Program-made: the position numbers and the translations under genes
NCBI GenBank assembly: GCA_043809315.1
Contig: JAZDDX010000043.1
Span: 1-34,605 of the forward strand
DNA: 34,605 nucleotides
Reading direction: 5' to 3'
Origin: Pseudomonadota bacterium
GTDB taxonomy: Bacteria; Bdellovibrionota_G; JALEGL01; DATDPG01
The notes under the pieces: model-generated
The model's database searches: none
Seen by the model: the letters and a program-made list of their open reading frames with translations, nothing else
What the model was told of the DNA's origin: nothing
Part shown: positions 803 through 20,338 of the stretch, one piece after another
How the letters are laid out: each line of letters opens with the position of its first letter
Numbering within the stretch: the stretch's first letter is position 1

Positions 803-2401
803 ATGCAGGGATCACACGTCTACCTGGGAGGAATGGGCTGGTGGACGATCATATTTCTGGTTTTGTTTGGTCTGAATTCCACGATTGTCGTCGCCCAAGA
901 ACAGAATGTACTTCAAGCGAACGACGATGCTCAGATGGCCCTTCAGGCGTTCACGCAGAAGGATTATCCCCTGGCAGTCCATTTGTACGAAAGACTCGTC
1001 GAGCGCGATCCGTCCAGAGGTCTTTTTTGGTTCAATCTGGGGAACAGCCGTTTCATGGCGGGCGATTATGCGGGAGCGGAAATCTCATATCGGAAGGTCG
1101 TTGCTCTCAACGGCCCTCTGTCGGTTCCCGCGCGGATTTATCTGACGAAGGCCCTGCGGAAACAGGAGAAGTTACATTCGGCTCGCGAGGTTCTCGAAGC
1201 CTTATCGACACAATCGTTGTCGGAGCCGCTTCGCAGAGAAACCGATGCCGAGCGAGATACGTTGAGAGAGTCGTTCGACGAGCGGGCGATCGCGGTGTAT
1301 CGCCAAGGGGATTTTGCGGAGGTCTTTCCCTTACTCGATGCCTCGCGCGCTCTTGGGTCGGGCATCGATGCGACCACGTTGCGTGGCCTTGCCCTCTTGA
1401 ATCTGGGACGCCCGTCCGAGGCCAGAGAGGTTTTTCAGAGTATCCTGGCCACCGAGGCCCGCACCGACACCGACCGAGCGCTTCAACAGGAGGCCCGGAG
1501 TTTTATCGCCGACATTGAGGATGGAAAATGGCCGAAGGAGATCCCGTTCTGGCTCTTCTCGGAACTGGCGGCCGGGTACAACACCAATGTGTTCGGGGAC
1601 GCGGAAGCGGATGGGCCGGTCAGCCGAACGGTGGCGACCTTTTTCAGCGGCTTCGGCTACCAGCATCCCCTGAATTCTCACTCCTGGGTTCAGGTGGCGT
1701 ACGACGTCGCATGGAACGAAGTGTGGGACGAGTCTTCCGCACGCTTCGTGGACAACGCGCTCTCTTTGCTTGGAATCTGGGACAACCGAATCTGGCGACT
1801 GCAGATGCAGACCGGCGTCGTCTACGATTTGGTCGACACCGGTTCGTTTCTTTGGGGTCCGGGAGGCGCCTTTATGGCGGACCGGTATTTCGGTTCAGGA
1901 AGGTTCGGCCTCCGATATGCCTATCGGCGGAACCTCGCGGGCTCTTCGTTGTATGACTACCTGAGCGGGGACACGCACTCGGGGAACATCCACTGGAAGT
2001 ACACCGGTTCCGTCACCTCCTTCGGTGTGCTCTTCTCCGCCGCCCGCGACGCCACGGGTGACCTGGTTCTCAGCACTGGAACCTTGCCGCTTGCTAACAC
2101 CTCCTTCGGCCCCGGATTCGATTTCCACTGGCGATTTGTTCCGAGATGGAAGATCGAAGGGTACTCCAGCTATCTGTTTTTGAATTACTCGAACGTCTCC
2201 CAGCCGACCGGGCGGGCGCGGGACGATCGGCGGTGGACCGGAACGGTTCGTCTCTCTTTTTCTCTGACCCCCTCCCTCGATCTTTTTGTGTCCGGCTCCG
2301 GGACGCTCAATCATTCCACGCTGACCGCCGCCGACCTCAAGGACAAGAACTATCGGCAGCTCATCGCTTTGGGAGGCCTGTCCTGGAACATCCTTCCATG
2401 A
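803..2401 (+). CDS. TPR-repeat protein with C-terminal beta-barrel-like (outer-membrane-type) domain
   Basis: 532-aa ORF. ATG with AGGGAAAGGAA Shine-Dalgarno. N-terminal signal/TM segment. TPR-like helical repeats in residues ~40-230. C-terminal half is aromatic/Gly-rich with alternating pattern (YRRNLAGSSLYDY..., FDFHWRF..., NYRQLIALGGLSWNILP). Stop overlaps the sigma-factor start (ATGA). Confidence 0.7.
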   Translation: MQGSHVYLGGMGWWTIIFLVLFGLNSTIVVAQEQNVLQANDDAQMALQAFTQKDYPLAVHLYERLVERDPSRGLFWFNLGNSRFMAGDYAGAEISYRKVVALNGPLSVPARIYLTKALRKQEKLHSAREVLEALSTQSLSEPLRRETDAERDTLRESFDERAIAVYRQGDFAEVFPLLDASRALGSGIDATTLRGLALLNLGRPSEAREVFQSILATEARTDTDRALQQEARSFIADIEDGKWPKEIPFWLFSELAAGYNTNVFGDAEADGPVSRTVATFFSGFGYQHPLNSHSWVQVAYDVAWNEVWDESSARFVDNALSLLGIWDNRIWRLQMQTGVVYDLVDTGSFLWGPGGAFMADRYFGSGRFGLRYAYRRNLAGSSLYDYLSGDTHSGNIHWKYTGSVTSFGVLFSAARDATGDLVLSTGTLPLANTSFGPGFDFHWRFVPRWKIEGYSSYLFLNYSNVSQPTGRARDDRRWTGTVRLSFSLTPSLDLFVSGSGTLNHSTLTAADLKDKNYRQLIALGGLSWNILP

Positions 2402-2937
2402 AGATCGACTCCTCGGAGACTCCTCTGGAACCGTTGGTTGAGCGAGCCCGGAAAGGGGACGAATCGGCGCTCTCGGAGCTCGTCGATCGCTACCAGGGAC
2501 GTCTGTACCGCTTTTGTTTCTACCTTTCCGGAAATCCGACCGTCGCGGAGGATCTCTGCCAGGACACGTTCGTCCGGGTCTTCACGAGTCTGGGGAAACT
2601 GAAGGATCCAGCGAAATTTCACTCCTGGCTGTTTCAGATCTCCAAGAACCTCTTTTGGGACCGACTCCGGTCCTCCGGCAAAACCGAAACACTTCTGGAA
2701 GAACCTTCCGCGGCCTCGGATTCTCCGGAGGTTCATCTCCAGATCACGCGGACGCTGGCGCGGATGGATCCGCAGGACCGTCTGGTCTTGCTCCTCGTGG
2801 ATCTTCAGGGACATTCGTACCGGGAAGCCGCCGAGATCCTCGAAATCTCCGTGGAGGCCGTAACCTCTCGGATTTACAGGGCCCGGCAGCTGTTTGTGGA
2901 GGCGTACGACCGGGATGAAAGGAAAGACGATCTCTGA
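2398..2937 (+). CDS. ECF-type RNA polymerase sigma-70 factor
   Basis: 179 aa from ATG 2398, same frame as track ORF 2146..2937. Region 2 (LVDRYQGRLYRFCFYLSGNPTVAEDLCQDTFVRVF) and region 4 (DRLVLLLVDLQGHSYREAAEILEISVEAVTSRIYRARQLF) motifs. ATGA overlap with the upstream gene implies translational coupling. Confidence 0.88.
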   Translation: MKIDSSETPLEPLVERARKGDESALSELVDRYQGRLYRFCFYLSGNPTVAEDLCQDTFVRVFTSLGKLKDPAKFHSWLFQISKNLFWDRLRSSGKTETLLEEPSAASDSPEVHLQITRTLARMDPQDRLVLLLVDLQGHSYREAAEILEISVEAVTSRIYRARQLFVEAYDRDERKDDL

Positions 2938-2963
2938 CCGTCTACCCAAAGGAAGAAAAGCAG

Positions 2964-3497
2964 ATGGATCAACCCTCAGACAAGATGGAACAACGAGTAA
3001 AAGGACTCTTCCGGCAGGCGGAGCAGGTTCCTCTGGAACCGTCCCCCTTCTTGAAAACGCGAGTTCTGGCTCATGTGCGTGAAGCCCGAGCCAAGACGGT
3101 CGGTTTCCGCTGGAAGATGTGGGCATTGGCCAGTTCGACGGCCAGCCTTCTTTTGCTCTCGGTTCTTTTCTGGCCCGCGCGGTCGTCTTTGACGGCCCTG
3201 GTGGATCAACGGGTCCTCGTGCGGGTGGAGGTGGAGGCTCTCGAAGGCAGCAACGTCGCGTACGCGACCGTGGAACTGCCGGACGGGGTTTCCTTCGTTT
3301 CAACGAAATATCCGGAAATCCAAAAGGCACATGAGGTGCGCTTGGCCTGGATGCCGGAGTTCGAGAACCGTGGATTGCCGGTCGTCGTTCGAGCGACCTC
3401 GGTGGGAAAAAAAACCATCCGCATATTTCTTTTCGACCGTAACGATACGGTTCTGAAGGCCAAGGAAGTAACCATCACGTTCCGGGGAGCGGCGTAG
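2964..3497 (+). CDS. putative membrane anti-sigma factor (single TM)
   Basis: 177-aa ORF 27 nt downstream of the ECF sigma gene with an AAGGAAG Shine-Dalgarno. One TM helix (WALASSTASLLLLSVLFW) and a periplasmic C-terminal domain. No zinc-finger motif seen; the role is inferred from position. Confidence 0.55.
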   Translation: MDQPSDKMEQRVKGLFRQAEQVPLEPSPFLKTRVLAHVREARAKTVGFRWKMWALASSTASLLLLSVLFWPARSSLTALVDQRVLVRVEVEALEGSNVAYATVELPDGVSFVSTKYPEIQKAHEVRLAWMPEFENRGLPVVVRATSVGKKTIRIFLFDRNDTVLKAKEVTITFRGAA

Positions 3498-3527: not shown

Positions 3528-4064
3528 ATGAAAAAACGAAATCTATGGAGCGGGATCGCGGTAAGCGCTCTCTTGTTGGCTCCGGTCGCCTCTTGGGCGG
3601 CGTCCGACGATCAAGTCGTCCAGGCTACCACCGAGGACGTCAAGGCGTTTGAAAACGCCGTCATGGAGAAGAACCAGGCTCGGGATCAAGTGCGCGAACG
3701 GGATCGGCTCCAAGAGCATCAGGCGACTGGATCGGCGGTGCAGGAGAAAGCCCGCATCCGGACCGAAAAGGCCGCGCGTACGAAGACAGGCCTGGGTGAG
3801 GTGGTGTCGGAGGAAGCGAAGAAGCTGAAGAATGCGGATCCGGCGACCCGGAACAAGTTCGGCGAGCAGGTTCGCGAGCGGGCCCGTCAACGGGAAGAGA
3901 CGCAGGAGCAAGCCCAGACCCGGCAACGGCAGGGGTGGGATGCCGTGCGTGACACGACCGTTCAGAGCGGCCAGCGGAACGGTGTGGACGCAGGCGCGGG
4001 CAGCGGAAGCGCGACGTCCGGCTCAGGAAGCGGGCAACAGAACGGCACTCAGCAGCACAAATAG
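3528..4064 (+). CDS. secreted low-complexity charged (Q/E/R-rich) protein
   Basis: 178 aa. AAGGGAAG Shine-Dalgarno. Signal peptide MKKRNLWSGIAVSALLLAPVASWA|AS. Highly charged coiled-coil-like body and a GSGS-rich C terminus. Last gene of the ECF cluster, followed by a terminator. Confidence 0.6.
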   Translation: MKKRNLWSGIAVSALLLAPVASWAASDDQVVQATTEDVKAFENAVMEKNQARDQVRERDRLQEHQATGSAVQEKARIRTEKAARTKTGLGEVVSEEAKKLKNADPATRNKFGEQVRERARQREETQEQAQTRQRQGWDAVRDTTVQSGQRNGVDAGAGSGSATSGSGSGQQNGTQQHK

Positions 4065-4093: not shown

Positions 4094-4137
4094 CCCCCGG
4101 GTTTCGAGGAATCCCCTCGGAACCCGGGGTGTGTTTT
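4094..4137 (+). terminator. Rho-independent terminator (15-bp GC stem, AATC loop, TGTGTTTT tail)
   Basis: CCCCCGGGTTTCGAGG-AATC-CCCTCGGAACCCGGGG-TGTGTTTT, read directly. Near-perfect inverted repeat with one G.U wobble, 30 nt after the stop at 4064. Confidence 0.65.
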
Positions 4138-4164
4138 GAAAGGACCGTTTTCGAAGGAGTCTCT

Positions 4165-4208
4165 GGTCACATAGGGTACTACTGGCTGCACGCGGGGGAC
4201 GGCAAAAC
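4165..4208 (+). repeat. intergenic repeat copy 1 (GGTCACATAGGGTACTACTGGCTGCACGCGGGGGACGGCAAAAC)
   Basis: First of 8 same-orientation copies. Lies between the terminator and the 3' end of the minus-strand lipoprotein gene. Most similar to copy 2 (shared CTGGCTGC and GACGGC variants; upstream AAGGACC). Confidence 0.9.
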
Positions 4209-4290
4209 TTTAGTCGTCAGTCGGCCGGCTGCGCGGTGCCAAAAAGCCGAAACTCCGGTTCGGCCCGCCAGCGAACGAAAGGAACGACCG

Positions 4291-4683
4291 TCAATCGGGC
4301 CACGAGACCGTCAGATCAGCCGAGCTACCTGATTGCTTCATCCCGCAGGCCTGTATGGTCTCCTCGAGAGTCTTTGCGGTGGACACACAGATCACGAGCG
4401 TTCGCTTCTGTTTCGCGCAGACTTCAAAGTTCCGTGGATCCGCGCCTTCCAGGCCCGTCGACTCATCGATCCTCTTGAGCTGTGCGTCCATGTCCTTTTG
4501 AGCGTCAGCGGCGGCAGGCGACTCCAGATTGATGTTCTTCTTCATTTGCTTGACGACGTACTTGCCCAGAAGCTTGCTCAGATTGCCCACCGCCTGTTGG
4601 CATTCTTCCGGGCTTGCTTTCTTCGCGCAGGCTAGGATCGTGCAGAGCCCGAAAACCGCTAGGATTACGAATCTCGTACGCAC
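4291..4683 (-). CDS. Cys-rich lipoprotein, unknown function
   Basis: Track ORF is 4291..4740. I prefer the GTG at 4683 (AGGT 7 nt upstream), which gives an 18-aa signal ending in the lipobox ILAC|AKK. The track start would give a 37-aa signal. The mature part has 4 further Cys. Confidence 0.55.
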   Translation of the reverse strand: MRTRFVILAVFGLCTILACAKKASPEECQQAVGNLSKLLGKYVVKQMKKNINLESPAAADAQKDMDAQLKRIDESTGLEGADPRNFEVCAKQKRTLVICVSTAKTLEETIQACGMKQSGSSADLTVSWPD

Positions 4684-4936
4684 GGCAGCTACCTTATCAC
4701 GGGTCTGTTTCGCCGCGAACGGCGACGTATACCTAGGCACCTTGGAATTTCAGCGTTCCCGATACTAAGATGGGCCGGGAATGCCGCGAGTTTCCGCATC
4801 GACCTTTCCCGAATGACGTTCCGCGAGTTCCATCGGCACAGCGAGGTTCTGGCCTCTGCCCTCTGGGCGTTCGACATCGTGAAGATCGGGCATCGGCGGG
4901 AAGTTTGCGAAGAGTAGGGCCTTTTTCAAGGACCAT

Positions 4937-4980
4937 GGTCACGTAGGGCACTGCTGGCTGCGCAGAAGGGACGGCGTTGC
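4937..4980 (+). repeat. intergenic repeat copy 2 (diverged: GGTCACGTAGGGCACTGCTGGCTGCGCAGAAGGGACGGCGTTGC)
   Basis: Aligns to copy 1 over its whole length. The 5' end forms a perfect 10-nt palindrome GACCATGGTC (4932-4941). Lies in the divergent region between the lipoprotein gene and the FGE-domain gene. Confidence 0.8.
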
Positions 4981-5054
4981 CAATGTTCTGGAGCCATCCC
5001 ACTCTTATTCCGATACGATGAGAATGAAGTCGGTCCTTCACGATTGGAGGGAAG

Positions 5055-6095
5055 GTGAGAGTCTCTCGGACTTTAGCAACGATTCAGACTCTTCTGGTGA
5101 TCGGTTTTCTTTGCGGCTGCTCGAGCAGCAGCGCTCCTATCGTTGCTGATCCCACCCCAACACCACCTCCGACCCCGACGGCGGGCGCAACGGCTACCCC
5201 GACGCCGACCGCAACTCCGACGTCGACCGTAACCCCAACCCCAACCCCGACGCCCACCATTCCGTCCTGCGTCGGAGGGTTGATGTGCAATTCCGCCAGT
5301 TGTTGTTCGTCTCACGAGATCCCGGCTGGGAGTTACACGATGGGGGCCCCCAACGCCGACGGAAGCTATGCTGCCGACACCAAGCCGCAGCATACGGCCA
5401 CCATCGCCAGGTTCGTTCTTGATGACTTTGAAGTGACCGTGGGACGGTTCCGTACGTTTGTCGCAGTCTATACCGGTGCGGCCCCCGCGACGGATTCCGG
5501 AGCCAATCCGGAAATCGTCGGGTCCGGATGGAGTGCCGGGTGGAACGCTTCGCTCCCAGCTGGCGCGGCGAATCTGATAACGGCATTGAAGTGCAGCGGC
5601 TACACCTGGACCGATACTGTCGGGGCCAACGAGAACCGCCCGATCAATTGCGTGACTTGGTACGAAGCCTTCGCGTTCTGCATTTGGGACCAGGGACGTC
5701 TGCCCACGGAAGCGGAGTGGGAGTACGGCGCGAAGGGTGGGGCGGAAGATCGGCTCTATCCGTGGGGATCCCCGATCGATGCATCTTATGCCTGCTACTC
5801 CGGGTGCTCTCTAGGAGATGTCGGATCGTATCCGGCCGGCATCGGGAAATGGAACCAGCTCGACCTGGCCGGGAACCTCGCGGAGTGGACCTTGGATTAC
5901 TATGCCGCCGACTGGTACTCGGGTGCCGGAGATCCGTGCTCGAATTGCGCCAACCTCTCCGGGGTGAACCGTTTGGTACGAGGCGGTTCGTCGTTGACCA
6001 ATACCGATGGTCTGCGTAATCCGACCAGGGCCAACTTGTCGCCGAGTTCCCGGACCTCAACGACTGGATTCCGGTGCGCCCGAGCCGCGCCGTAA
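5055..6095 (+). CDS. FGE-sulfatase (SUMF1/EgtB/PvdO-type) domain lipoprotein with Pro/Thr-rich linker
   Basis: GTG start with GGAGGG Shine-Dalgarno. Lipobox VIGFLCGC. Linker PTPTPPPTPTAGATATPTPTATPTSTVTPTPTPTPT. FGE-domain motifs NCVTWYEAFAFCIW, RLPTEAEWEYGAKGG, RGGS...R. Confidence 0.8.
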   Translation: MRVSRTLATIQTLLVIGFLCGCSSSSAPIVADPTPTPPPTPTAGATATPTPTATPTSTVTPTPTPTPTIPSCVGGLMCNSASCCSSHEIPAGSYTMGAPNADGSYAADTKPQHTATIARFVLDDFEVTVGRFRTFVAVYTGAAPATDSGANPEIVGSGWSAGWNASLPAGAANLITALKCSGYTWTDTVGANENRPINCVTWYEAFAFCIWDQGRLPTEAEWEYGAKGGAEDRLYPWGSPIDASYACYSGCSLGDVGSYPAGIGKWNQLDLAGNLAEWTLDYYAADWYSGAGDPCSNCANLSGVNRLVRGGSSLTNTDGLRNPTRANLSPSSRTSTTGFRCARAAP

Positions 6096-6114
6096 GTCAG
6101 AACGCCATGTTCGT

Positions 6115-6158
6115 GGCCATATAGGGTACTCCTGGCTACACGCGGGGGACGCCAAATC
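6115..6158 (+). repeat. intergenic repeat copy 3 (..GGCCATATAGGGTACTCCTGGCTACACGCGGGGGACGCCAAATC)
   Basis: 20 nt after the FGE stop. Its last base is the first base of the reverse-complement TAG stop (cta 6158-6160) of the minus-strand gene 6158..6709. Confidence 0.9.
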
Positions 6159-6709
6159 TAGTCCTTGAGACTTCGCAAGAACTCCAAATCCTGCATATCA
6201 GCGGGATTCTTTCTGTCTCTTACCGCGATTTCCTTCATGGTGATCAGGTCTTTCTTGTCAGCGATGAGGAACGGGTGAGACTTGATGGTCTTTCTTCGGG
6301 CTCGCTGAGCGACGCCTCTTGCCGGGATCGGAAAGTCGAATAGAAGATCGACCCTCAGATCGAGATCGCGGTTGAAAAAGTGCGCGCTCTTCGGTGGATC
6401 CATGTTGAGCTTTGCATAGGCCACATTCGCATTATCCACCGTACGCACGATGTTGCCGCGCTCGTCCAGCTTCGAGACGAGCTCAAGTCCGTGCTTGTAG
6501 AAGACCTTCATCAACTCCTTATTCTTCCGAGCGTCCGCCTCGATCAGGAAATCAAAGTCCTTTGTTACGCGGTTCGATTCAAGCAGTGCCAGAGCCATGC
6601 CACCGACAAGGGTAGGGGAGTAGCCCAGCTTCATCACATCCTCGATGAGCTCCCCGACCGATTCGGCGAGGCTTTTCCGTCGCAATATCTTCTTGGGCCT
6701 AGTTTTCAT
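6158..6709 (-). CDS. nucleotidyltransferase-fold protein (MNT/AbiEii-like), possible toxin-antitoxin or defence-type component
   Basis: 183 aa. Minimal nucleotidyltransferase motif VGGMALALLESNRVTKDFDFLIE (hG[GS]x9-13 [DE]h[DE]h). Visibly lower GC than its neighbours. 9-nt gap from the upstream small ORF, suggesting an operon. Confidence 0.65.
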   Translation of the reverse strand: MKTRPKKILRRKSLAESVGELIEDVMKLGYSPTLVGGMALALLESNRVTKDFDFLIEADARKNKELMKVFYKHGLELVSKLDERGNIVRTVDNANVAYAKLNMDPPKSAHFFNRDLDLRVDLLFDFPIPARGVAQRARRKTIKSHPFLIADKKDLITMKEIAVRDRKNPADMQDLEFLRSLKD

Positions 6710-6718
6710 CGGAGCCCG

Positions 6719-6919
6719 TCACGACTCGGCACCACGGAGTTCTCGAATGGCGTCCAAGTGTTCGAAGTTGCTCTGGATCCGTTTCGCGAGTCGTAGAGAT
6801 TCCATCCGAGCTTTGACTCCAAGTCTGGCGATTTCCTGACGACGATCACTCGGCAGCCGTTTCGCCCTTGTGAGCCCGCCCTTTCTACCCATAATTTTGG
6901 CCATTTCCGACACGGTCAT
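6719..6919 (-). CDS. small basic protein (66 aa), putative DNA-binding or antitoxin-like partner of the nucleotidyltransferase
   Basis: ORF MTVSEMAKIMGRKGGLTRAKRLPSDRRQEIARLGVKARMESLRLAKRIQSNFEHLDAIRELRGAES. Start uncertain (ATGs at 6919, 6904 and 6892, none with a good Shine-Dalgarno). Function is inferred from the pairing only. Confidence 0.4.
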   Translation of the reverse strand: MTVSEMAKIMGRKGGLTRAKRLPSDRRQEIARLGVKARMESLRLAKRIQSNFEHLDAIRELRGAES

Positions 6920-6952
6920 AATCTCAATGTTAACTTATCGCTAAGTAAAATA

Positions 6953-6971
6953 CAAGGTCGGCGGCGTTGCC
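6953..6971 (+). repeat. degenerate fragment of the repeat 3' end (CAAGGTCGGCGGCGTTGCC, compare copy 2 GAAGGGACGGCGTTGCC)
   Basis: Lies 18 nt upstream of copy 4. It resembles the variant 3' end of copy 2, suggesting a decayed tandem copy. Confidence 0.4.
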
Positions 6972-6988
6972 TGGGGATCGAGACTTAG

Positions 6989-7031
6989 GGTCACATAGGG
7001 TACTACTGGCTACAAGCGGGGGACGCCAAAC
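6989..7031 (+). repeat. intergenic repeat copy 4 (GGTCACATAGGGTACTACTGGCTACAAGCGGGGGACGCCAAAC)
   Basis: Ends 1 nt before the reverse-complement TGA stop (tca 7032-7034) of the methyltransferase gene. Followed by GTTAGCC at 7040-7046. Confidence 0.9.
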
Positions 7032-7895
7032 TCACGTTAGCCGAAGAAGAGTCCTTCCCAATCCCCACTCTGCTCTCGCATTTGGAAGACGTGCCCATTC
7101 CAGGAGCTCGAACAAAACCTGTTTGAGGTCGCATGGCAGCTTAAAGAGGCGGGCCCCGACCACGTGCCCTAAAAATGCATGTCGAACGTACATCTCAACC
7201 TCGGCGGGGGTGGTGAAAAGGGTTCTCAGGTGTTCGATTTTCACCACCGAAAAGCCGTGATTCGACGCCGAGTCAACGAGCCTCTCTTCGACCTTCCTCT
7301 GATTGCCCTGCCCCTGTTTGGAACCAAGAGATTCCCGAAGGCGATTCATTACCGGTGCGGGAGGATCCTCGCGCCAGTATTCGTCCAATGCGTCCAGGAC
7401 GTGCAGAACTCCTCCTCGCTCTAGCACCCGCCTTGCGGTCTCGAGAAAACGATCGTGATCATCGAGATGCTGCAGAAGCGCACGAGCGATCGCGTAACTG
7501 AACGGGCCCCCCGAAAAATCGTAGACATCTTGCTGATGGAGGGCGCAATTAGAAAATGACCCCAACCTCTCGGCAGCGGCAACGAGTAACTCGGGGCTCC
7601 GGTCCACGCCGGCGTAAGTCTTTTCCGGGAAAACTGAACAAAGACGCTCGATCAAATGTCCGGGGCCGCACCCAAAATCGACCACCGTTTTCGCGCTCTT
7701 CCAGTCCGCGTCCCGTGACAGGAACTTCTGCAGCTCTTTCCATGTTCCGGCCATCTGAATTTCAAGAACGACTTCGTAGATCTCCTCCGTTCTTGCGTGT
7801 TTCAGAACGTCGAGATGGCGGGCAGGACTTTCGGAGAAATCGGCCAGGCGAACGGTTGCGTTGAAGCCGTACTGGCGGGCAATCGGGTTATCCAT
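7032..7895 (-). CDS. class I SAM-dependent methyltransferase
   Basis: Motif I VVDFGCGPGHL and post-I acidic D (AGVDRS). Track ORF extends to 8144, but that 83-aa R/S-rich N-extension overlaps the esterase gene and contains a repeat fragment. ATG at 7895 (MDNPIARQYGF...) gives a typical 288-aa enzyme. Confidence 0.7.
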   Translation of the reverse strand: MDNPIARQYGFNATVRLADFSESPARHLDVLKHARTEEIYEVVLEIQMAGTWKELQKFLSRDADWKSAKTVVDFGCGPGHLIERLCSVFPEKTYAGVDRSPELLVAAAERLGSFSNCALHQQDVYDFSGGPFSYAIARALLQHLDDHDRFLETARRVLERGGVLHVLDALDEYWREDPPAPVMNRLRESLGSKQGQGNQRKVEERLVDSASNHGFSVVKIEHLRTLFTTPAEVEMYVRHAFLGHVVGARLFKLPCDLKQVLFELLEWARLPNARAEWGLGRTLLRLT

Positions 7896-8006
7896 CCACC
7901 AAGACGCTATGCCAGATCTCGAAAGACGGCGAGAAATAGAACGTGGACCACTAGCGTTTTGGATGGGACCAGATCTACCACGTACACGGATAGACGACGA
8001 ATCCCG

Positions 8007-8021
8007 TCGGGGACGCCAAAC
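8007..8021 (+). repeat. truncated repeat copy (CGGGGACGCCAAAC, the 3' ~15 nt only)
   Basis: In the 212-bp spacer between the esterase and methyltransferase genes. Matches the 3' end of the core. The 5' part is decayed (CTACCACGTACACGG versus GCTACACGCGGGGG). Confidence 0.5.
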
Positions 8022-8107
8022 TTTGATTTCCGTGGGGGAATCGCGATGAGAGACGCACGCGTCAACGAGGGTTGCCGCCCCAAAAATAGGGTTTCGATCA
8101 CGACGAG

Positions 8108-8869
8108 TTAGGCTGCTTCGACCGCCGCCAGCACTTCTTTCCACGGCTCGCTGTGCGGATCGATCAATTCAAAGTGGCCACACTTCAAGACTTCCACCAG
8201 TTGAACGTCCTCGCCCCTTATCTTCTTAGATTCGACGTATCTTCGGCTAAAGTCGTTGGGAACTACATCGTCCTCGGTGCCGTGGACGAGCCATTGCTTT
8301 GCCTGTGCGATTGGAAGTGTCATCGGGTCGGCTTTCACATAGCGTTCCGGCACTTGATCGGGCTTCCCGCCCATGAATTCGGCTGTGGCATCCTTGGAGA
8401 GATGTAAGTCGAAGGCAGCCCGCAGATCCACCACTCCGGCGAGCGAGATTACGCGCTTCACGGAAGGCTCATGTGCCGCGAGGCACAGTGCCAGATGTCC
8501 TCCTGCGGAGAACCCCATGACGACCACTTTGCGAAGATCGAAGTGATATTGGTTTGCCACTTGGCCGATGTGTCGATAAGCGGCGGCAATGTCTTCAAAT
8601 GTTCCTGGCCATCCACCACCTGGATCTCCCACGCGCCGATATTCGACGTTCCAGGTGGCAAAGCCTTTTTCTGTGATTGAAGCGCAAAGGTGCTCGGCTT
8701 CAGCGAGGTCGTATTTGTTGCGCCAGAAGCCGCCATGGATGTTCATCATCACGGGAAAAGGTCCCTTCCCTCCGGGAAGACGAAGATCGGCGAAGTGCTG
8801 CGGCGCGGTCCCATAGAACACACGCGCGGTTGCCGGTGGCGGGGCAAGCCTGACGGTGTCCTGTGTCAC
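8108..8869 (-). CDS. alpha/beta-hydrolase esterase/lipase family protein
   Basis: Oxyanion-hole motif NIHGGFW and nucleophile elbow GFSAGGHLA, with C-terminal HGTEDDVVP and GHFEL (catalytic Asp/His). 253 aa; GTG start at 8869 is uncertain. Confidence 0.8.
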   Translation of the reverse strand: MTQDTVRLAPPPATARVFYGTAPQHFADLRLPGGKGPFPVMMNIHGGFWRNKYDLAEAEHLCASITEKGFATWNVEYRRVGDPGGGWPGTFEDIAAAYRHIGQVANQYHFDLRKVVVMGFSAGGHLALCLAAHEPSVKRVISLAGVVDLRAAFDLHLSKDATAEFMGGKPDQVPERYVKADPMTLPIAQAKQWLVHGTEDDVVPNDFSRRYVESKKIRGEDVQLVEVLKCGHFELIDPHSEPWKEVLAAVEAA

Positions 8870-8981
8870 AACGGCGCGATTAGATCACGGATTGTGAGTG
8901 TCGGCCACGTCTGCGCCGCCAACGACCGGTCGCATGAATCTTCACTTGACACGAAAGACGCTCGTGGAATGAAGTTGGACG

Positions 8982-9653
8982 ATGACGAACTCACGGCACT
9001 TTTCCGAAGAAGAAGTCCACGCGCTTGCCCGGGATGCGTACGAAAGGGGCGTCTGCGAGTTCCCGGTGATGCCGGGTCGGTCGGCCCTCTTGGTCATCGA
9101 CATGCAGGAGGAATTCGTGAAGCCCAATTGGACGCCCTACTGGGTGCCCGCCGCCACCCGGATTGTCCCGCGGATCGCGCGACTCCTGGAATCCTGCCGC
9201 AACCTGGGCGTTCCCGTGATCTTCACGGCGTTTGGTTCGACCCACCGGTTTCTGGATCGGCCCCTCACCGGGTCCCTGATGCCGAACCGGTACGCGCGCA
9301 TTCCGCACGACTCCTCCTGGTTCCGCGAGGGAAAGATCGTGGCGTCGCTTGAGCCGCGATCGGAAGAAATCACGATTTTGAAGCCGTCGTACGGTGCCTT
9401 CTATGACACCCCGCTGGAGACCGTCCTGAAGAATCTTGGTCGGGACACGGTGATCATCAGCGGCACGCTGACGAACTTCTGTTGTGGTATGACCGCTCGG
9501 CAGGCCTATGAGCGAGGCTTCCACGTGGTTTTCGGAGCCGACGTGACGGCCTCCGACGATGCCGAGATGCACGAGAACGAACTGAAGAACCTGCGCAAGG
9601 GTTTCGCGAGGGTGATGACAGCGGAGGAAATCCTTGTGGCGCTGGGGGCCTGA
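8982..9653 (+). CDS. isochorismatase-family (cysteine) hydrolase
   Basis: ATG start. SALLVIDMQEEFV motif with catalytic Asp context, and C-terminal TNFCCGMTARQAYERGFHVV with catalytic Cys. 223 aa. Confidence 0.85.
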   Translation: MTNSRHFSEEEVHALARDAYERGVCEFPVMPGRSALLVIDMQEEFVKPNWTPYWVPAATRIVPRIARLLESCRNLGVPVIFTAFGSTHRFLDRPLTGSLMPNRYARIPHDSSWFREGKIVASLEPRSEEITILKPSYGAFYDTPLETVLKNLGRDTVIISGTLTNFCCGMTARQAYERGFHVVFGADVTASDDAEMHENELKNLRKGFARVMTAEEILVALGA

Positions 9654-9723
9654 CCGCTGCCCACAGTCGACGCACTTTCGCCTCCGTCCCATAGACCGGA
9701 TTTCGCCCTCAAACGGAACATAT

Positions 9724-9766
9724 GGTCACGCAGGGTACTACTGGCTACACGCAGGGGACGCCAAAC
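9724..9766 (+). repeat. intergenic repeat copy 5 (GGTCACGCAGGGTACTACTGGCTACACGCAGGGGACGCCAAAC)
   Basis: 70 nt after the isochorismatase stop and about 40 nt before the true N-terminal coding region of manA. 5' near-palindrome GAACATATGGTC. Confidence 0.9.
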
Positions 9767-9950
9767 TGGATGGGTGGGACGTTGTTTTGGCCCGTGATCA
9801 GCGTAAGAGTACTGGATCGACCCCATTCAAACACCTCTGTATCCACTGCGATTTGAACCGATTTATGAATATCGGCTCTGGGGTGGACGGCGTTTAGCCG
9901 AAATACTCAACGCCTCGCTACCGAGTGACGGCCCGATCGGTGAAGCGTGG

Positions 9951-10817
9951 GTGCTCAGCGACCGCGATGACCATTCAAGTCGCGTAGCCAATGGACCGCT
10001 CAAAGGAAGGATGATCGGCCAACTGCTTCAACAGTTTCCGGAGCAAATGCTGGGAAAGTCAGCCCAACGATTTCGTCGATTTCCCCTGTTGCTGAAGTTC
10101 CTGGATGCACGTGAAATGCTTTCAGTCCAGGTGCATCCAACGGATGCCGATACGAACCTGCTGCCCGCGAACGAGACTGGAAAGACGGAAGCATGGGTTG
10201 TGATGGAAGCGGGCGCGGAAAGTCGCATCTATGCGGGCTTGAATCCAGGGACTACTACGGACGGACTTCGGCAGGCACTGGAAAACGGGGCGATTGCGGA
10301 TCATCTGGCCAGCTTTACGCCAAGACCGGGCGACGGCATTTTCATTAGAGCCGGGACCGTTCACTCGTTGGGCGACGTTGTGGTGTTTGAGGTACAGGAA
10401 AACAGCGATGTCACGTTTCGCCTATACGACTGGGACCGTGTCGACGGCAAAACGGGCCGGCCTCGCGCTCTGCAAGTCGATCAGGCGATGGCCTGCATTG
10501 ATTTTGCCCAAGGTGCGGTTGTCCCTGTGGTGCCGGTGGTGGAAGAAACAAAGCCGGCGCTTCGAGAGCGGCTCGTCTTATGTGAGAATTTTGGCTTGTG
10601 GCGACTCCGTGGAGAATCACCATTCAAGGTCGGTGCAGAGGGAGTTCTGCGTATGTTGGTGTGCATCGTCGGCGACGGTGAGGTGGAATACAAGGGCTCC
10701 CAATATGCCGTCGGAACCGGCGACGTGCTGCTCCTGCCGGCGGTGGTCGGAGCGTGTGGTTTTCAGCCGCGCGGGGCCGTGACCTTGTTGGAAGTTTCGC
10801 TACCGTTGGAACGATAG
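9951..10817 (+). CDS. manA: mannose-6-phosphate isomerase, class I (N-terminus uncertain; homology extends upstream to about 9807-9816)
   Basis: The same frame upstream of the GTG at 9951 encodes PIQTPLYPLRFEPIYEYRLWGGRRLAEILNASLPSDGPIGEAWVLSD, the conserved type-I PMI N-terminal segment. There is a TAA at 9804-9806 and no ATG/GTG/TTG before 9951. Downstream motifs LSVQVHP..D and ENFGLWRL support the PMI call. Confidence 0.75.
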   Translation: MLSDRDDHSSRVANGPLKGRMIGQLLQQFPEQMLGKSAQRFRRFPLLLKFLDAREMLSVQVHPTDADTNLLPANETGKTEAWVVMEAGAESRIYAGLNPGTTTDGLRQALENGAIADHLASFTPRPGDGIFIRAGTVHSLGDVVVFEVQENSDVTFRLYDWDRVDGKTGRPRALQVDQAMACIDFAQGAVVPVVPVVEETKPALRERLVLCENFGLWRLRGESPFKVGAEGVLRMLVCIVGDGEVEYKGSQYAVGTGDVLLLPAVVGACGFQPRGAVTLLEVSLPLER

Positions 10818-10859
10818 GGGGCTTTGCTCCTAGCATCTCGGCCCCCAAGGGCGTAGAAG

Positions 10860-13139
10860 ATGCGTGTGACGGAAGCTCCGAGCACCTCAGGGATCAAGCG
10901 GATCGCAGTGATCGGCGACTATCTTCCGCGTCAATGCGGGATCGCGACGTTCACCACGGATCTCTGCGAAGCCCTTTCCACGCAGTTCCCCCAGACTCAG
11001 GTGTTCGCCGCCCCCGTGAACGATACGGACGACGGGTACGACTATCCTTCCCGGGTGCGTTTTGAGATCGAGCAGGACGATCTTTCTTCGTATCGGCGAG
11101 CCGCGGATTTTCTGAACATCAACAACGTCGACATCGTTTCTGTCCAACATGAATACGGGATCTACGGGGGGAAGGCGGGAAGCCACATTCTGGCGCTCCT
11201 AAGCGAGCTCCGGATGCCGGTGGTCACGACGCTTCACACGATTCTAGAGAATCCGGATCCGAACCAGAAGAAAGTGATGGAAGAACTGACGAAGCTCTCG
11301 GATCGGCTGGTGGTGATGAGCCAGCGTGCCGTGAAGTTTCTCGAAGAGATCTACCTTGTCCCATCGAACCGGATTCAGATGATCCACCACGGGACGCCCG
11401 ATGTCTCGTTCGTGGATCCCAATTTTCACAAGGACCGCTTCGGCGTGGAGGGGAAGTCCGTTCTTCTCACATTCGGGTTACTCTCGCCCAGCAAGGGAAT
11501 TGAATACGTGATCGAGGCGCTTCCGGCGATTCTGGCCCGGTTTCCCAACCTGGTCTTCATCGTGGTAGGGGCGACGCATCCGAACGTTCTCAAGCAGGAC
11601 GGGGAACTTTATCGTCTCAAACTGGAGCGGCTGGCTGCGGACCTGGGAGTGAGTCAGAACGTCGTTTTCCACAATCGCTTCGTGGATCTCGAGGAACTGG
11701 TGGAGTTCATCGGGGCTGCGGATCTCTACGTGACGCCGTATTTGAACCGCGAGCAGATCTGTTCGGGAACGCTCGCCTATACGGTATCGGCCGGGAAGCC
11801 GGTGATTTCCACGCCGTATTGGTATGCCGAGGAACTTCTTGCCGAGGGCCGGGGCGTCTTGGTTCCCTTTCGGGACTCGAAAGCCATTGCAGGTCGCGCG
11901 ATTGAACTTCTTGAGACGGAAGCCGACCGACATGCCATTCGCAAGAGAGCGTATCTCTTCGGTCGTGAGATGATCTGGCCGAAGGTGGCTTCCGCATACA
12001 TGCAGACCTTTGAAGAAGTACGCGACCACCGGTTGCGGCGGCCGAAGCCCTTTACGGTCCGAACGCTGGATCAGCGGCCCGCCGAATTGCCTCCGTTGTC
12101 TCTGAAGCATCTATATCGACTCACCGATGAAACCGGCCTTTTTCAGCATGCGATTCACACCATCCCCAACTATCGGGAGGGATATACGACCGACGACAAC
12201 ACCCGGGGCTTGATTCTTACTGTGCTTCTCGAGGATCTCGGGGAAGAAGAAGAAGTCCTGGAAACGGAAGACCTTCCGGCTCGGTATATGGCCTTCGTGA
12301 TGTACGCGTACAATTCCGAAATCGGCCGCTTTCGGAACTTTCTCGGATTCGACCGGCACTGGTCGGAAGACAAGGGTTCGGACGACAGCCATGGGCGCGC
12401 GCTCTGGGCCTTAGGGAGCATGTCGGGCCGGTCGCGGGATGTCGAACGGGCCGCTTTGGCAGGACAACTGTTCAACACGGCTCTGAAGGCGATGAAAGAT
12501 TGCACGAGCCCGCGCTCGTGGGCCTTCACGCTTCTCGGGCTGCACGATTATCTCAAACGGTACGCGGGGGACCGCGAAGCCCGTCAGATGCAGGAGATGC
12601 TCGCCGGACGTCTGATGGAGATGTTTACACGCAACGCGTCCGAGGAGTGGCGGTGGTTTGAGGACGTTCTCACGTACTCGAATGCCACGCTCGCTCAGGC
12701 GCTCTTTGTCTCGGGTTCCGCTTTGGGAAAACCCGAATACATCGAAACGGGGCTGCGGGCGCTTACGTGGCTGGGCTCCATCCAGGGGGCCAACGACAGC
12801 CACTTCATTCCGATCGGGTCCACGGGATTCTACCGCCGGGGAGGCGAGCGGGCGCGCTTCGATCAACAGCCGATCGAAGCGCAGACCATGATCTCCGCGT
12901 ACCTGGATGCCTATCGCATCACGGGGGACAAGAAATGGCAGAAAGACGCGCAGCGAACGTTTGAATGGTTTCTGGGCCGCAACGACTTGCGACTTCCGCT
13001 TTATGATCCTGCCACCGGCGGCTGTCGGGACGGGCTTCATTCCGATCGTGTGAACCAAAACCAGGGGGCCGAGTCGACGTTGGCGTTCCTGATGGCGCTC
13101 TTAGAACTCAAGTTGGCCGACCAAGTGCTGCAAATCTAG
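10860..13139 (+). CDS. bifunctional-looking glycosyltransferase family 4 (N-terminal) + (alpha/alpha)6 six-hairpin glycosidase-like domain (C-terminal)
   Basis: N-terminus KRIAVIGDYLPRQCGIATFTTDL plus GT4 core (FGLLSPSKGIEY, E...GLVLLEA-like YVTPYL..SGTLAYTVSAGKPVISTPY). C-terminal ~350 aa (WAFTLLGLHDYL, WRWFEDVLTYSNATLAQAL, ESTLAFLMALLEL) reads as a glycoside-hydrolase six-hairpin barrel (GH63/GDE_C-like). The domain families are my inference. Confidence 0.75.
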   Translation: MRVTEAPSTSGIKRIAVIGDYLPRQCGIATFTTDLCEALSTQFPQTQVFAAPVNDTDDGYDYPSRVRFEIEQDDLSSYRRAADFLNINNVDIVSVQHEYGIYGGKAGSHILALLSELRMPVVTTLHTILENPDPNQKKVMEELTKLSDRLVVMSQRAVKFLEEIYLVPSNRIQMIHHGTPDVSFVDPNFHKDRFGVEGKSVLLTFGLLSPSKGIEYVIEALPAILARFPNLVFIVVGATHPNVLKQDGELYRLKLERLAADLGVSQNVVFHNRFVDLEELVEFIGAADLYVTPYLNREQICSGTLAYTVSAGKPVISTPYWYAEELLAEGRGVLVPFRDSKAIAGRAIELLETEADRHAIRKRAYLFGREMIWPKVASAYMQTFEEVRDHRLRRPKPFTVRTLDQRPAELPPLSLKHLYRLTDETGLFQHAIHTIPNYREGYTTDDNTRGLILTVLLEDLGEEEEVLETEDLPARYMAFVMYAYNSEIGRFRNFLGFDRHWSEDKGSDDSHGRALWALGSMSGRSRDVERAALAGQLFNTALKAMKDCTSPRSWAFTLLGLHDYLKRYAGDREARQMQEMLAGRLMEMFTRNASEEWRWFEDVLTYSNATLAQALFVSGSALGKPEYIETGLRALTWLGSIQGANDSHFIPIGSTGFYRRGGERARFDQQPIEAQTMISAYLDAYRITGDKKWQKDAQRTFEWFLGRNDLRLPLYDPATGGCRDGLHSDRVNQNQGAESTLAFLMALLELKLADQVLQI

Positions 13140-13160
13140 AACCGGAACGGGAGAAACTGC

Positions 13161-14132
13161 ATGAGCCAGGGGCAAAAGGAATACGACGCTCTTTTCGTTC
13201 GGAGTGAAAAGAATCCCATTCTCTCGGCCGCCGATTGGCCGTACGCCGTCAACAGCGTCTTCAACGCCGGGGCGACGCGCTTACTGGACGGAACCACGCT
13301 CCTTTTGTGCCGCGTGGAGGATCGCACTGGGCACTCGCATCTCTGTGCCGCGCGTTCGAAGAACGGTGTCGACGGTTGGCAAGTTGATTCTCAACCGACG
13401 ATGAAACCCGATATGGAAGGTCATCCCGAGGAGATCTGGGGAATTGAAGACCCCCGAATCACGTACCTTCCGGAATTAAAGAAATATGCGGTCGTGTACA
13501 CGTCGTTTTCGCGAGGCGGTCCGGGAGTCTCGATCGCCTTGACCGAGGACTTTCATCTGTTCGAACGTCTGGGGGTCGTGATGCCTCCCGAAGACAAGGA
13601 CGCGGCACTTCTTCCCCATCGGATGGATGGGCGCTGGGTTTTGATTCATCGCCCCTCCACGCCTCTGGGGTCGCATATCTGGAGCTCGTACTCGCCCGAT
13701 CTCCGGCATTGGGGGGACCACAAGCTTGTCCTTCAAGCCCGCCGGGGAGCCTGGTGGGATGCCAACAAGATCGGACTCAACACGCCGTTGATCGAGACTC
13801 CTCGGGGTTGGCTGATGATTTATCACGGCGTTCGAAACACCGCCGCTGGGGGCGTCTATCGCCTGGGGCTTGCACTCCTCGATCCGAAATGTATCGAACA
13901 TTGTCTTCTGCGAGGGGAAACGTGGATCTTCGGCCCTGAAGCGAATTATGAACGGGAAGGGGACGTGGGGAACGTTGTCTTCCCATGTGGGCTCACCATC
14001 GCCCCGGACGGGGACACGATTCATCTCTATTATGGAGCGGCGGATACGTGCATCGCCTTGGCTCACGCGAGCGTTCGAAAGTTGTTGGGTTGGCTGGAAC
14101 GAAACGGCCGTCCGGAGCGTTTTCCGTTGTAA
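13161..14132 (+). CDS. GH130-family beta-mannoside phosphorylase/glycosidase
   Basis: Motifs NPIL..ADWPYAVNSVFNAGA, EDPRITYL, YAVVYTSFS, GWLMIYHGV, and C-terminal HLYYGAADTCIALA, typical of GH130 (5-bladed beta-propeller). 22 nt after the GT gene, so operonic. Confidence 0.85.
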   Translation: MSQGQKEYDALFVRSEKNPILSAADWPYAVNSVFNAGATRLLDGTTLLLCRVEDRTGHSHLCAARSKNGVDGWQVDSQPTMKPDMEGHPEEIWGIEDPRITYLPELKKYAVVYTSFSRGGPGVSIALTEDFHLFERLGVVMPPEDKDAALLPHRMDGRWVLIHRPSTPLGSHIWSSYSPDLRHWGDHKLVLQARRGAWWDANKIGLNTPLIETPRGWLMIYHGVRNTAAGGVYRLGLALLDPKCIEHCLLRGETWIFGPEANYEREGDVGNVVFPCGLTIAPDGDTIHLYYGAADTCIALAHASVRKLLGWLERNGRPERFPL

Positions 14133-14176
14133 GCCCGGCATAGGGTACTCCCGGCTACACGCGGGGGGCGCCAAAT
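14133..14176 (+). repeat. intergenic repeat copy 6 (GCCCGGCATAGGGTACTCCCGGCTACACGCGGGGGGCGCCAAAT)
   Basis: Starts directly after the GH130 TAA stop. Lacks the GGTCAC 5' end; core conserved. Confidence 0.9.
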
Positions 14177-14212
14177 GCAGTTGGCAGTCTCGGCAACCCT
14201 TCCCGGGGGCAC

Positions 14213-15211: not shown

Positions 15212-15227
15212 AGCCAAATTAACCGAT

Positions 15228-15280
15228 GGTCACGTAGAGTGCCGTTGGCCGCGCGCGGGGGGCGTCATCGGAACGTCGGG
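15228..15280 (+). repeat. intergenic repeat copy 7, long subfamily (GGTCACGTAGAGTGCCGTTGGCCGCGCGCGGGGGGCGTCATCGGAACGTCGGG)
   Basis: 17 nt after the stop at 15211. 51/53 identical to copy 8. Contains the perfect palindrome CCGCGCGCGG. Confidence 0.9.
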
Positions 15281-15325
15281 TCCTTTTGCCGTCGCGCTTC
15301 GTTCCCATTTGCTCGCGCGTAATTG

Positions 15326-15353
15326 TTTCACGGACCCTGACTCCTGATATGGT
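15326..15353 (+). promoter_or_regulatory. candidate sigma70-like promoter for the SPFH operon (TTTCAC-16-TATGGT)
   Basis: Seen in the AT-richer spacer 30 nt upstream of the AAGGAG Shine-Dalgarno of the gene at 15384. Purely a sequence-pattern call. Confidence 0.25.
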
Positions 15354-15383
15354 AGGTTTTCATCGCAAGATAAGGAGCCCCCA

Positions 15384-16405: not shown

Positions 16406-16414
16406 TCGCTACGT

Positions 16415-16467
16415 GGTCCTGTAGAGTGCCGTTGGCCGCGCGCGGGGGGCGTCATCGGAACGTCGGG
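16415..16467 (+). repeat. intergenic repeat copy 8, long subfamily (GGTCCTGTAGAGTGCCGTTGGCCGCGCGCGGGGGGCGTCATCGGAACGTCGGG)
   Basis: 10 nt after the stop at 16405. Last copy in the window; nothing similar in 16.5-34.6 kb. Confidence 0.9.
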
Positions 16468-17505: not shown

Positions 17506-17837
17506 AGTTTCCTCCCGAGGGCCCGAAAAGCTTGGCCCGTCCTTAGACTGCACGAAACACGCCAATCATTATAGGGCGCAACAAACTAGTTATGCTAGGT
17601 ATTTTGATGCAACCGAAACGGCGGGTCTGCGTGAACTATGCATTCATTTCAATCCAGTGCATTTTTTTCAACCTACGAGTACCACTTTCCAATCCTTTTC
17701 AGCTCCGCCTCTTTGAAATCGACGGGCGTCATCACGCGCAGGTTCAAATGAAAAATAAAGGGGTGCTCCCATGGAACCTTTTTTATGGATTCTCGTTTGA
17801 AGGTGGGTAAAGGGAGGGGATCAAAAAGGGGGAAGAT

Positions 17838-20329: not shown

Positions 20330-20338
20330 GCCGTTCCG

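Follow-up and report, generated by a model that had tools for sequence, protein, structure and literature searches.

Composite repeats that end in the 3' end of tRNA-Glu are probable attachment sites of small, integrase-less gene modules in a relative of Bdellovibrionota

Background

The short direct repeats described here lie in a 34,605-nt stretch of DNA, referred to below as the window (positions 1 to 34,605 of contig JAZDDX010000043.1, assembly GCA_043809315.1). It belongs to a poorly known lineage in which metagenome-assembled genomes (MAGs) are labelled Pseudomonadota and the nearest named relative is Bdellovibrionota. The repeats end in a copy of the 3' end of tRNA-Glu and are separated by single genes or small groups of genes, and the closest described case is that of the tandem ssrA-specific islands of Dehalococcoides. 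In those islands, 20-bp repeats of the 3' end of the tmRNA gene are each directly preceded by a conserved 15-bp motif that is not part of ssrA (McMurdie et al. 2011, PMC3146451). The islands are about 10-20 kb long; DsiB serine recombinases are found in 16 of them, and 15 have no integration module and were interpreted by the authors as cis-mobilizable elements (CIMEs) (PMC3146451).

In both organisms, successive units downstream of a small-RNA gene are delimited by co-oriented direct repeats of that gene's 3' end, a conserved non-target motif stands upstream of the repeat, many units have no integration module and synteny breaks at the repeats. The locus described here differs in that the target is tRNA-Glu rather than tmRNA, the units measure 0.13-5 kb and often consist of a single gene, copies also occur away from any visible tRNA gene, and no recombinase was found in about 85 kb of sequence, which comprised the window and the fetched loci L026, L066, L090 and L096.

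CIMEs retain attL and attR, encode neither integration nor transfer functions and form accretion arrays via a resident attachment (att) site (Pavlovic et al. 2004; PMC5704250). They are decayed integrative and conjugative elements or integrative and mobilizable elements, a few kb to tens of kb in size and usually one or two per locus (PMC5704250), whereas the window has eight sites in 12 kb and cargo of integron-cassette size. The tycheposon-seeded islands of Prochlorococcus grow at tRNA genes and have partial tRNAs between stacked elements and remnants; the att repeats are partial tRNAs of about 40 nt, and the elements carry tyrosine recombinases and replication modules (Hackl et al., 10.1101/2020.12.28.424599). 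Partial tRNA copies and an association with a tRNA gene are also found here, but only 11-14 nt of the repeat are derived from the tRNA and these are fused to a conserved 30-nt arm.

A sequence-only reading of the window had noticed that the repeats sit at gene 3' ends, close to stop codons, and had proposed either site-specific insertion at the ends of open reading frames (ORFs), as in attC sites, or a 3'-UTR function. The analysis reported here indicates that the repeats are probably the att sites of small modules without an integrase, which would have been stacked by serial site-specific recombination at a core derived from tRNA-Glu.

Results

The window has a G+C content of 58%, and genes were called from ORFs, third-position G+C (GC3) and Pfam. 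Eight co-oriented repeat copies of about 45-55 nt, all on the plus strand, span positions 4159-16467. An 18-nt consensus pattern matched 6-7 times in the window, compared with 0.07 matches expected by chance, and the remaining 18 kb of the window, which is core genome and includes a 227-nt convergent gap, contained no copy. The repeat is built of a 5' arm of about 30 nt (TGGTCAC-N13-TGGCTAC-ACG) and a core of about 11-14 nt, CGGGG(G)ACGCCA(AAC); its 3' end reads ...CACGCGGGGGACGCCAAAC, and the conserved block of about 45 nt is not self-complementary. The copies in the window are as follows.

4159..4213, plus strand: copy 1, arm TGGTCAC...CACG and core CGGGGGACGGCAAAAC, downstream of the gene at 3528-4064; its 3' flank, CTTTAGTCGTCAGTCGGCC, is common to copy L096c and the family-2 (second-arm) site of the relative
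4931..4985, plus strand: copy 2, with a degenerate core GCAGAAGGGACGGCG, between the divergent genes 4291-4740 (minus) and 5055-6095 (plus)
6109..6163, plus strand: copy 3, occupying the 62-nt convergent gap from the FGE-sulfatase stop (6095) to the AbiEii-like stop (6158-6160)
6983..7037, plus strand: copy 4, its core ending 1 nt short of the methyltransferase TGA (7032-7034); 98% identical to copy L096b
9718..9772, plus strand: copy 5, past the isochorismatase gene 8982-9653 and ahead of the PMI-like/GT4/GH130 operon
14128..14182, plus strand: copy 6, 5'-truncated with the first box lost, abutting the GH130 stop; its orthologue is L090 9847-9902
15222..15280, plus strand: copy 7, of a diverged subfamily, core GGGGGGCGTCATCGGAACGTCGGG
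16409..16467, plus strand: copy 8, the last copy of the window, with conserved core genome beyond

Copies 7 and 8 represent the diverged subfamily; their identity over 54 nt is 96%, and the SPFH/small-protein module at 15384-16405 lies between them. In the relative, copy 5 corresponds to L090 6456-6504, which immediately precedes the GT4 leader. Between the gene at 3528-4064 and copy 1, at 4095-4129, stands an intrinsic terminator that is very strong, with a 15-pair stem and a T-rich tail after it.

One scan of 185,579 species genomes for the repeat returned a lone genome with multiple matches, the MAG JAZDIZ01 (GCA_043804515.1), whose orthologous genes are 80-83% identical to those of the window. 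Outside JAZDIZ01, two metagenome scans, one viral scan and a blastn search against phages and plasmids gave nothing beyond chance matches. The fetched loci of this relative contained 11 strong copies and one weak partial copy (L096 11116-11148). Within arrays, co-orientation was complete (8/8, 4/4, 3/3 and 2/2), one full and one weak partial copy of L096 (11116-11290) being reversed.

The link to tRNA-Glu was found in the 3' part of the repeat. This part, GGGGACGCCAAAC, matches tRNA-Glu(UUC) exactly over 13 nt, from the 3' end of the gene into its first flanking bases, with a score that was reached by none of 2000 shuffles. The core corresponds to the acceptor 3' strand, the discriminator base and the CCA of this tRNA, together with the first flanking bases; the tRNA-Glu of L096 ends in ...CGTCGGGGACGCCA and is followed by AACTTTGGTTTCC. 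In copies L026a, L026b and L096d, the similarity runs on into the 3' flank of the tRNA itself (p <= 0.008) and the match lengthens to 22-26 nt. The 5' 29 nt of the repeat had no similarity to tRNA-Glu, and when the 5' arm was considered as a degenerate tRNA, local alignment was no better than for shuffles. Elements and CIME arrays that target a tRNA gene are characterized by direct repeats with exactly the sequence of the 3' end of that gene, and such repeats are present here.

The position of the repeats relative to the tRNA gene was visible in L096, the first 13.9 kb of JAZDIZ010000038.1, which has an intact tRNA-Glu(UUC) gene at 7946-8023 on the minus strand. Four co-oriented copies, each after one gene or operon, form an array that begins directly downstream of this gene and has its orientation. 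The order past tRNA-Glu on the same strand is His_Phos_1, repeat, CDH, repeat, RHH/ParE, repeat, NorB module, repeat and the end of the contig. On the opposite side of the tRNA and in the opposite orientation, L096 has a partial copy at 11116-11148, weak and similar to copy 7, and a full copy at 11236-11290 (plus strand), which lie 3 kb beyond the tRNA-Lys/tRNA-Glu pair. The window contig has a partial tRNA-Glu alone:

7996-8031, plus strand: partial tRNA-Glu of 36 nt, co-oriented with the repeats, comprising half of the T-loop through the CCA and 14 nt of tRNA flank

The fragment has 2 mismatches over its best 34 nt (94% identity) relative to the tRNA-Glu of L096 (E = 2e-9) and is intergenic, lying between the stop of the hydrolase gene (8108) and the probable start of the methyltransferase gene (7895). 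The ORF called there, 7032-8144 on the minus strand, is probably too long: its first 83 codons, rich in Arg and Ser, are not protein-like, and a credible start is Met84 at 7895, which frees a 212-nt gap (7896-8107) that contains the partial tRNA-Glu. Further partial tRNA-Glu fragments that are co-oriented with the arrays were found at L096 5016-5029 and L026 6723-6736.

Homology between loci or genomes begins or ends at the core in four comparisons, as is characteristic of hybrid att sites. 1) Over more than 165 nt, L096 and L026 are 99% identical; the identity stops right after ...GACGCCAA, and beyond it the two sequences diverge completely. 2) The arms of L096a and L096b differ at four positions and the sequences further upstream are unrelated, while from GGGGGACGCC on they are 99.6% identical for more than 200 nt. 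3) The toxin-antitoxin module of the window recurs in two other samples (L105 and L106, the latter from SRR26835459) at 80-82% nucleotide identity; in L106 the TAG of the toxin is directly followed by TTTTGGCGTCCCC, the reverse complement of the core, and in L105 a degenerate 14-nt core remnant without an arm lies at the toxin stop, the homology stopping at that point in each. 4) Between the window and L090, the GT4-GH130 homology (83%) ends at the GH130 stop and copy 6, and on the other side it starts 10 nt past the relative's repeat; GH130, the repeat and NMO are adjacent in L090, while the window has 6.2 kb of extra modules between copy 6 and NMO. The breaks in synteny with L090 are thus at copies 5 and 6.

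The arms themselves vary. A second 5' arm, CCGTAGCTTCCGCGTAGGCGG, was found on the same core at L096 5016-5050 and L026 6723-6757 (the arm being 5030-5050 and 6737-6757, minus strand) and was absent from the window. The 3' flank CTTTAGTYGTCAGT is common to copy 1, L096c and the second-arm site. Two 5' arms and at least three 3' flanks thus occur around one core in differing combinations; from the flank shared by copy 1, L096c and the second-arm site it follows that arms were recombined around one common core. The second arm suggests that at least two element families share one target. In addition, a non-coding unit of about 350 nt bounded on both sides by the tRNA-Glu core was noted (L096 5016-5363, minus strand; L096 1-205; L026 6723-6909). 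A strong hairpin of terminator type, GCCGCCCACTCCGGTGGGCGG, opens it and leads into T-rich sequence. The unit was seen at 99% identity in at least 2-3 places, two of which break contigs, and Rfam did not match it. An empty cassette and a gene for a small RNA are possible identities.

The juxtaposition to stop codons that had been pointed out earlier was essentially confirmed. In the window, six copies start 0-100 nt past a plus-strand stop and two end 1-3 nt ahead of the stop of a minus-strand gene. With the copy boundaries used in the sequence-only reading, copies 3, 6, 7 and 8 do start 20, 1, 17 and 10 nt past plus-strand stops, which end at 6095, 14132, 15211 and 16405, and the core of copy 4 ends at 7030/7031, ahead of the methyltransferase TGA (tca, 7032-7034). 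At copy 3, where an overlap with the stop had been described, the proximity is real (the core, ...GACGCCAAA, ends at 6156 and the AbiEii-like TAG, cta, is at 6158-6160), but the overlap depends on how the boundary is drawn, the block ending 1-2 nt earlier. At copy 6, contact with the GH130 stop arises only from a deletion of roughly the first 35 nt, the first box among them, as comparison with its orthologue in the relative (L090b) shows. Most copies are located at gene 3' ends, as claimed, but what precedes copies 2 and 4 is in each case the 5' start of a minus-strand gene. The preference also held among other copies, where its absence had been named as the outcome that would count against it: a co-oriented gene 3' end lies immediately upstream of 14 of the 18 scorable copies in the two genomes (one-sided binomial p = 0.015 against 50%, by our own arithmetic from the gene maps).

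Two further points fared less well. The motif rTAGrG, said to be carried by every copy, is replaced by GCAGGG in copy 5 and by CAAGGG and GTGGGG in two copies of the relative. A check proposed in the same reading took C-terminal residues to be encoded across the junction; none are. The AbiEii-like toxin is full length, in a family typically of 183 aa, and homologues share its conserved C-terminus, ...DLEFLRSLKD, which shows that the stop codon is native. These observations also speak against an insertion aimed at ORF ends, the probable target being the tRNA-Glu-derived core and not the stop codons.

Modules between successive co-oriented sites range from 0.13 to 5 kb and consist of single genes, toxin-antitoxin pairs and short operons. 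The genes of the window, in order, are the following.

3528-4064, plus strand: gene followed by copy 1
4291-4740, minus strand: gene followed by copy 2
5055-6095, plus strand: FGE-sulfatase, followed by copy 3
6158-6709, minus strand: AbiEii-like nucleotidyltransferase toxin (Pfam), in the toxin-antitoxin module 6158..6919 between copies 3 and 4
6719-6919, minus strand: 66-aa partner of the AbiEii-like toxin, followed by copy 4
7032-7895, minus strand: methyltransferase, the first gene past copy 4
8108-8869, minus strand: hydrolase, between the methyltransferase and the isochorismatase
8982-9653, plus strand: isochorismatase, followed by copy 5
9951-14132, plus strand: operon of PMI-like, GT4 and GH130 genes, followed by copy 6
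14213-15211, plus strand: NlpC/P60, followed by copy 7
15384-16405, plus strand: SPFH and a small protein, followed by copy 8
past copy 8: core genes NMO, M28 peptidase, DEAD helicase and BipA

In the window as well as in L026, L066 and L096, a toxin-antitoxin pair adjoins a repeat copy. Toxin homologues that are more distant (69-75% identity, L107 and L108) have no repeat. Several other features of these genes were recorded. The window has two isochorismatase-family paralogues, one in the repeat-bounded region (8982-9653) and one in the core (25918-26586), and the latter has 80% amino acid identity to an L026 gene that lies directly downstream of two repeat copies. The FGE-sulfatase-domain protein has a Pro/Thr-rich low-complexity linker (5154-5252), and the ORF 16663-17565 on the minus strand encodes a secreted, lipoprotein-like, Pro/Thr-rich protein of 300 aa, unannotated and without a family match. 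A GGC/GGT-rich simple repeat (20249-20316, in the region 19991-20360) either immediately precedes the NMO gene or falls within its N-terminal part, and the deposited NMO protein of 431 aa starts later than the 474-aa form conserved in relatives.

Searches for other identities of the repeat were largely negative. Rfam gave no match in the window, either at the gathering score or at E <= 5. Folding of single copies relative to shuffles, on both strands and as RNA and DNA, gave minimum free energy z-scores of -0.9 to +2.2, and no fold was stable. RNAalifold on 19 copies produced a 10-pair, thrice-bulged helix with 3 compensatory pairs that was reached by 1-3 of 500 shuffles, and its folding term was merely -3.7 kcal/mol; the helix is read as weak dyad symmetry of the kind found in a protein-binding site, not as a stable hairpin. 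The hairpin followed by a T-run that defines an intrinsic terminator was absent from the repeat; a terminator scan found none within copies 1-6 or copy 8, and one weak 5-pair call overlapped copy 7 (15261-15277). Three other candidates were rejected: a TGGTCA/TGGCTA stem seen by eye was unsupported once copies were added, a sigma-54 or other promoter would have the wrong orientation for 6 of 15 downstream genes, and a coding explanation was set aside when the substitutions between copies proved not to be conservative.

An attC site has pairing R''/R' and inner L''/L' boxes within an imperfect single-strand palindrome of 57-141 nt, and its array ends in intI and attI. In alignments of 8 and of 19 copies with their flanks, R'' (RYYYAAC)/R' (GTTRRRY) and L''/L' boxes were absent, and the 3' GCCAAAC had no partner. 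There was no palindrome of that length: the conserved block is about 45 nt and the intergenic space at copy 3 is 62 nt in total. Canonical attC boxes and long-range pairing of flanks, tried as candidates, were inconsistent from copy to copy. No ORF in the window or related loci matched intI/Phage_integrase, although one elsewhere in the genome is possible, and no tyrosine or serine recombinase was found in the 85 kb. The ORFs near the array that lack annotation, considered as hidden recombinases, had no match in PHROGs, NCBIfam or PDB, and the ORF 2350-3330 on the minus strand, considered as an integron integrase, had no Pfam match and a poor coding signal.

Repetitive extragenic palindromic (REP) sequences combine a GTAG-type tetranucleotide with a stable imperfect palindrome and occur in hundreds of copies, often as inverted pairs; the gene of the REP-associated tyrosine transposase (RAYT) is flanked by REPs. 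Although (A/G)TAG was present in 15 of 19 copies, no stable stem accompanied it. In the 85 kb or so of sequence seen, the copies were clustered, co-oriented and never in inverted pairs, and no RAYT gene was seen.

Conservation of the repeats differed from copy to copy. Over the 43-nt core, identity between non-orthologous copies of the two genomes is 86-98%, compared with 80-83% for orthologous genes, while the one clearly orthologous pair, copy 6 and L090b, is only 63% identical and has been kept in place. Some copies are decaying relics; others have been kept uniform by selection or by recent spread. In a third relative, L095 (Logan SRR22387811), BipA, NMO and DEAD helicase are adjacent and there is no repeat upstream of the NMO gene; the corresponding window segment, 20339-28506, runs from NMO to DEAD helicase, isochorismatase and BipA.

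Discussion

Taken together, the composite site, the co-oriented arrays, the anchoring to tRNA-Glu in the sole array with a visible end, the tRNA fragments, the junctions at the core and the shuffled arms are established at the level of sequence. They argue that the repeats are, with reasonable probability, att sites of small integrase-less modules. A recombinase acting in trans would join circular modules to the 3' end of tRNA-Glu or to a resident att copy; the crossover would fall on the core CGGGG(G)ACGCCA or immediately 5' of it, the predicted point being at or just 5' of CGGGGACGCCA. Each event would displace the older modules downstream, so that a variable genomic island would grow by tandem accretion. 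The arm and core would stay at the right end of a module, right after its last co-oriented ORF, and the next module would start immediately past the core. In a module that begins with an inverted gene, the stop codon of that gene would be 1-3 nt from the core, as at copy 3, copy 4, L026c and L106. On this mechanism, the closeness of stops to the repeat would result from the joining of compact modules at one constant crossover position, and would be a by-product that reflects neither targeting of stop codons nor a 3'-UTR function. The tRNA-Glu genes of the window's own organism would be expected to end in GGGGACGCCA, and the intact tRNA-Glu of the window array would lie to the left of the contig. 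One may speculate that the 7-nt boxes TGGTCAC and TGGCTAC and the inverted GACGCCA are binding sites.

Several observations weigh against the att-site interpretation: 1) the window contig contains no intact tRNA gene, and the anchoring of its array was inferred rather than seen, 2) no tyrosine or serine recombinase is encoded in the 85 kb or so, 3) the two reversed copies of L096 (11116-11148 and 11236-11290) are unexpected under simple accretion, 4) the toxin-antitoxin module of L106 has no repeat on its promoter side, 5) two of the sharpest junctions fall where contigs of a MEGAHIT assembly end, 6) the family is carried by only three genomes, 7) the decay of copy 6 and L090b to 63% identity means that many copies may be old relics and 8) genomes of the lineage are heavily rearranged even at places without repeats, as the comparison of L095 with the window illustrates.

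As in integron arrays, the modules are compact and mostly lack a promoter, and each carries one co-oriented site at its 3' end; toxin-antitoxin cassettes are present, and the site is split asymmetrically, most of it staying with the upstream module. Unlike attC, the repeat has no R/L boxes, folded hairpin or GTTRRRY, neither intI nor attI accompanies it, and its core is a tRNA 3' end. A bolder idea, which we regard as possible but doubtful, is that the lineage may run an integron-like gene-cassette platform that needs neither IntI nor attC. Cassettes of a single gene would be taken up, stacked and reordered by a recombinase acting in trans, through a double-stranded att site whose crossover core mimics the 3' end of tRNA-Glu. 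If any resident copy served as a landing pad, this would explain the occurrence of arrays at several chromosomal loci.

Among the alternatives, the repeats could be inert scars, old att remnants that are now substrates only for homologous recombination and deletion. No recombinase was found nearby, copy 6 is truncated and at 63% identity to L090b, and the core of copy 2 is degenerate, all of which speaks for this. It is nonetheless unlikely: the cross-genome identity of up to 98% over 43 nt, compared with about 80% in orthologous genes, argues for recent spread or selection on many copies; the 96% identity over 54 nt of copies 7 and 8, which flank one module, and the multi-copy core-bounded unit of about 350 nt at 99% identity also tell against it.

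An improbable alternative is a REP-like extragenic repeat, selfish or domesticated, spread by a RAYT/HUH transposase on single-stranded DNA, which would gather downstream of genes and be co-oriented through replication-strand bias. The repeats do resemble REP sequences and bacterial interspersed mosaic elements (BIMEs) in being short (45-55 nt), lineage-specific and intergenic, mostly just past stops, with a GTAG-like tetranucleotide: (A/G)TAG stands at the 5' foot of a weak dyad in most copies, and the imperfect RNAalifold helix has its compensatory pairs. They differ from REP/BIME elements with RAYT in lacking a stable palindrome (single-copy z-scores are about 0 on either strand, as RNA or DNA), inverted doublets and, as far as the sequence shows, a genome-wide spread, since the 18 kb of core genome have no copy, and in being linked to a tRNA. 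Such an element, for which no RAYT gene was seen, would leave the identity with the 3' end and flank of tRNA-Glu, the tRNA-anchored array, the partial tRNAs and the shuffled arms unexplained.

A terminator, processing site or 3'-UTR stabiliser, transcribed with the upstream plus-strand gene, had been the second suggestion of the sequence-only reading and appears very improbable. The 14 of 18 copies that lie 0-100 nt past a co-oriented gene fit such an RNA element, as do the G.U pairs of the predicted helix, which exist on the repeat strand only, and the orthologous copy kept after GH130 in both genomes. The repeat has no Rfam match, stable fold or T-tract, however, and copy 1 is located downstream of a canonical terminator. 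Moreover, 4 of the 18 copies, namely copies 2 and 4, L026b and L026c, have no co-oriented upstream gene, 2 are antisense to both neighbours, and homology junctions exactly at the core would not be accounted for.

An integron cassette array without an integrase (a cluster of attC sites lacking integron-integrases, CALIN), recombined by IntI from elsewhere, would suit the compact modules, the co-oriented sites that follow single genes and the toxin-antitoxin cassettes, of which some are inverted, but membership of this family is hardly credible and already refuted by the absence of its defining features, there being no RYYYAAC...GTTRRRY pair in attC arrangement, no R/L-box palindrome, a 45-nt block that is not self-complementary, 62 nt of intergenic space at copy 3, no intI in the window or related loci, and a core that is the 3' end of tRNA-Glu. 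The attC-like boundary element first proposed thus survives in its behaviour, since the repeat delimits modules, is co-oriented and marks the points where homology breaks, but not in its kinship, having neither R''/R' boxes nor palindromic stem nor intI; the notion of a cassette boundary was right in kind and wrong in family.

Conclusions

If the repeats are att sites, as they probably are, island building by tandem accretion at a tRNA gene can work at the scale of single genes. The arrays would resemble integron cassette arrays while using a different site and a different enzyme, and integron-finding tools would miss them because they have neither attC nor intI. They concentrate toxin-antitoxin and accessory genes in a poorly known lineage, and the arm joined to the tRNA-Glu core provides a concrete sequence signature by which the recombinase and excised circles could be sought.

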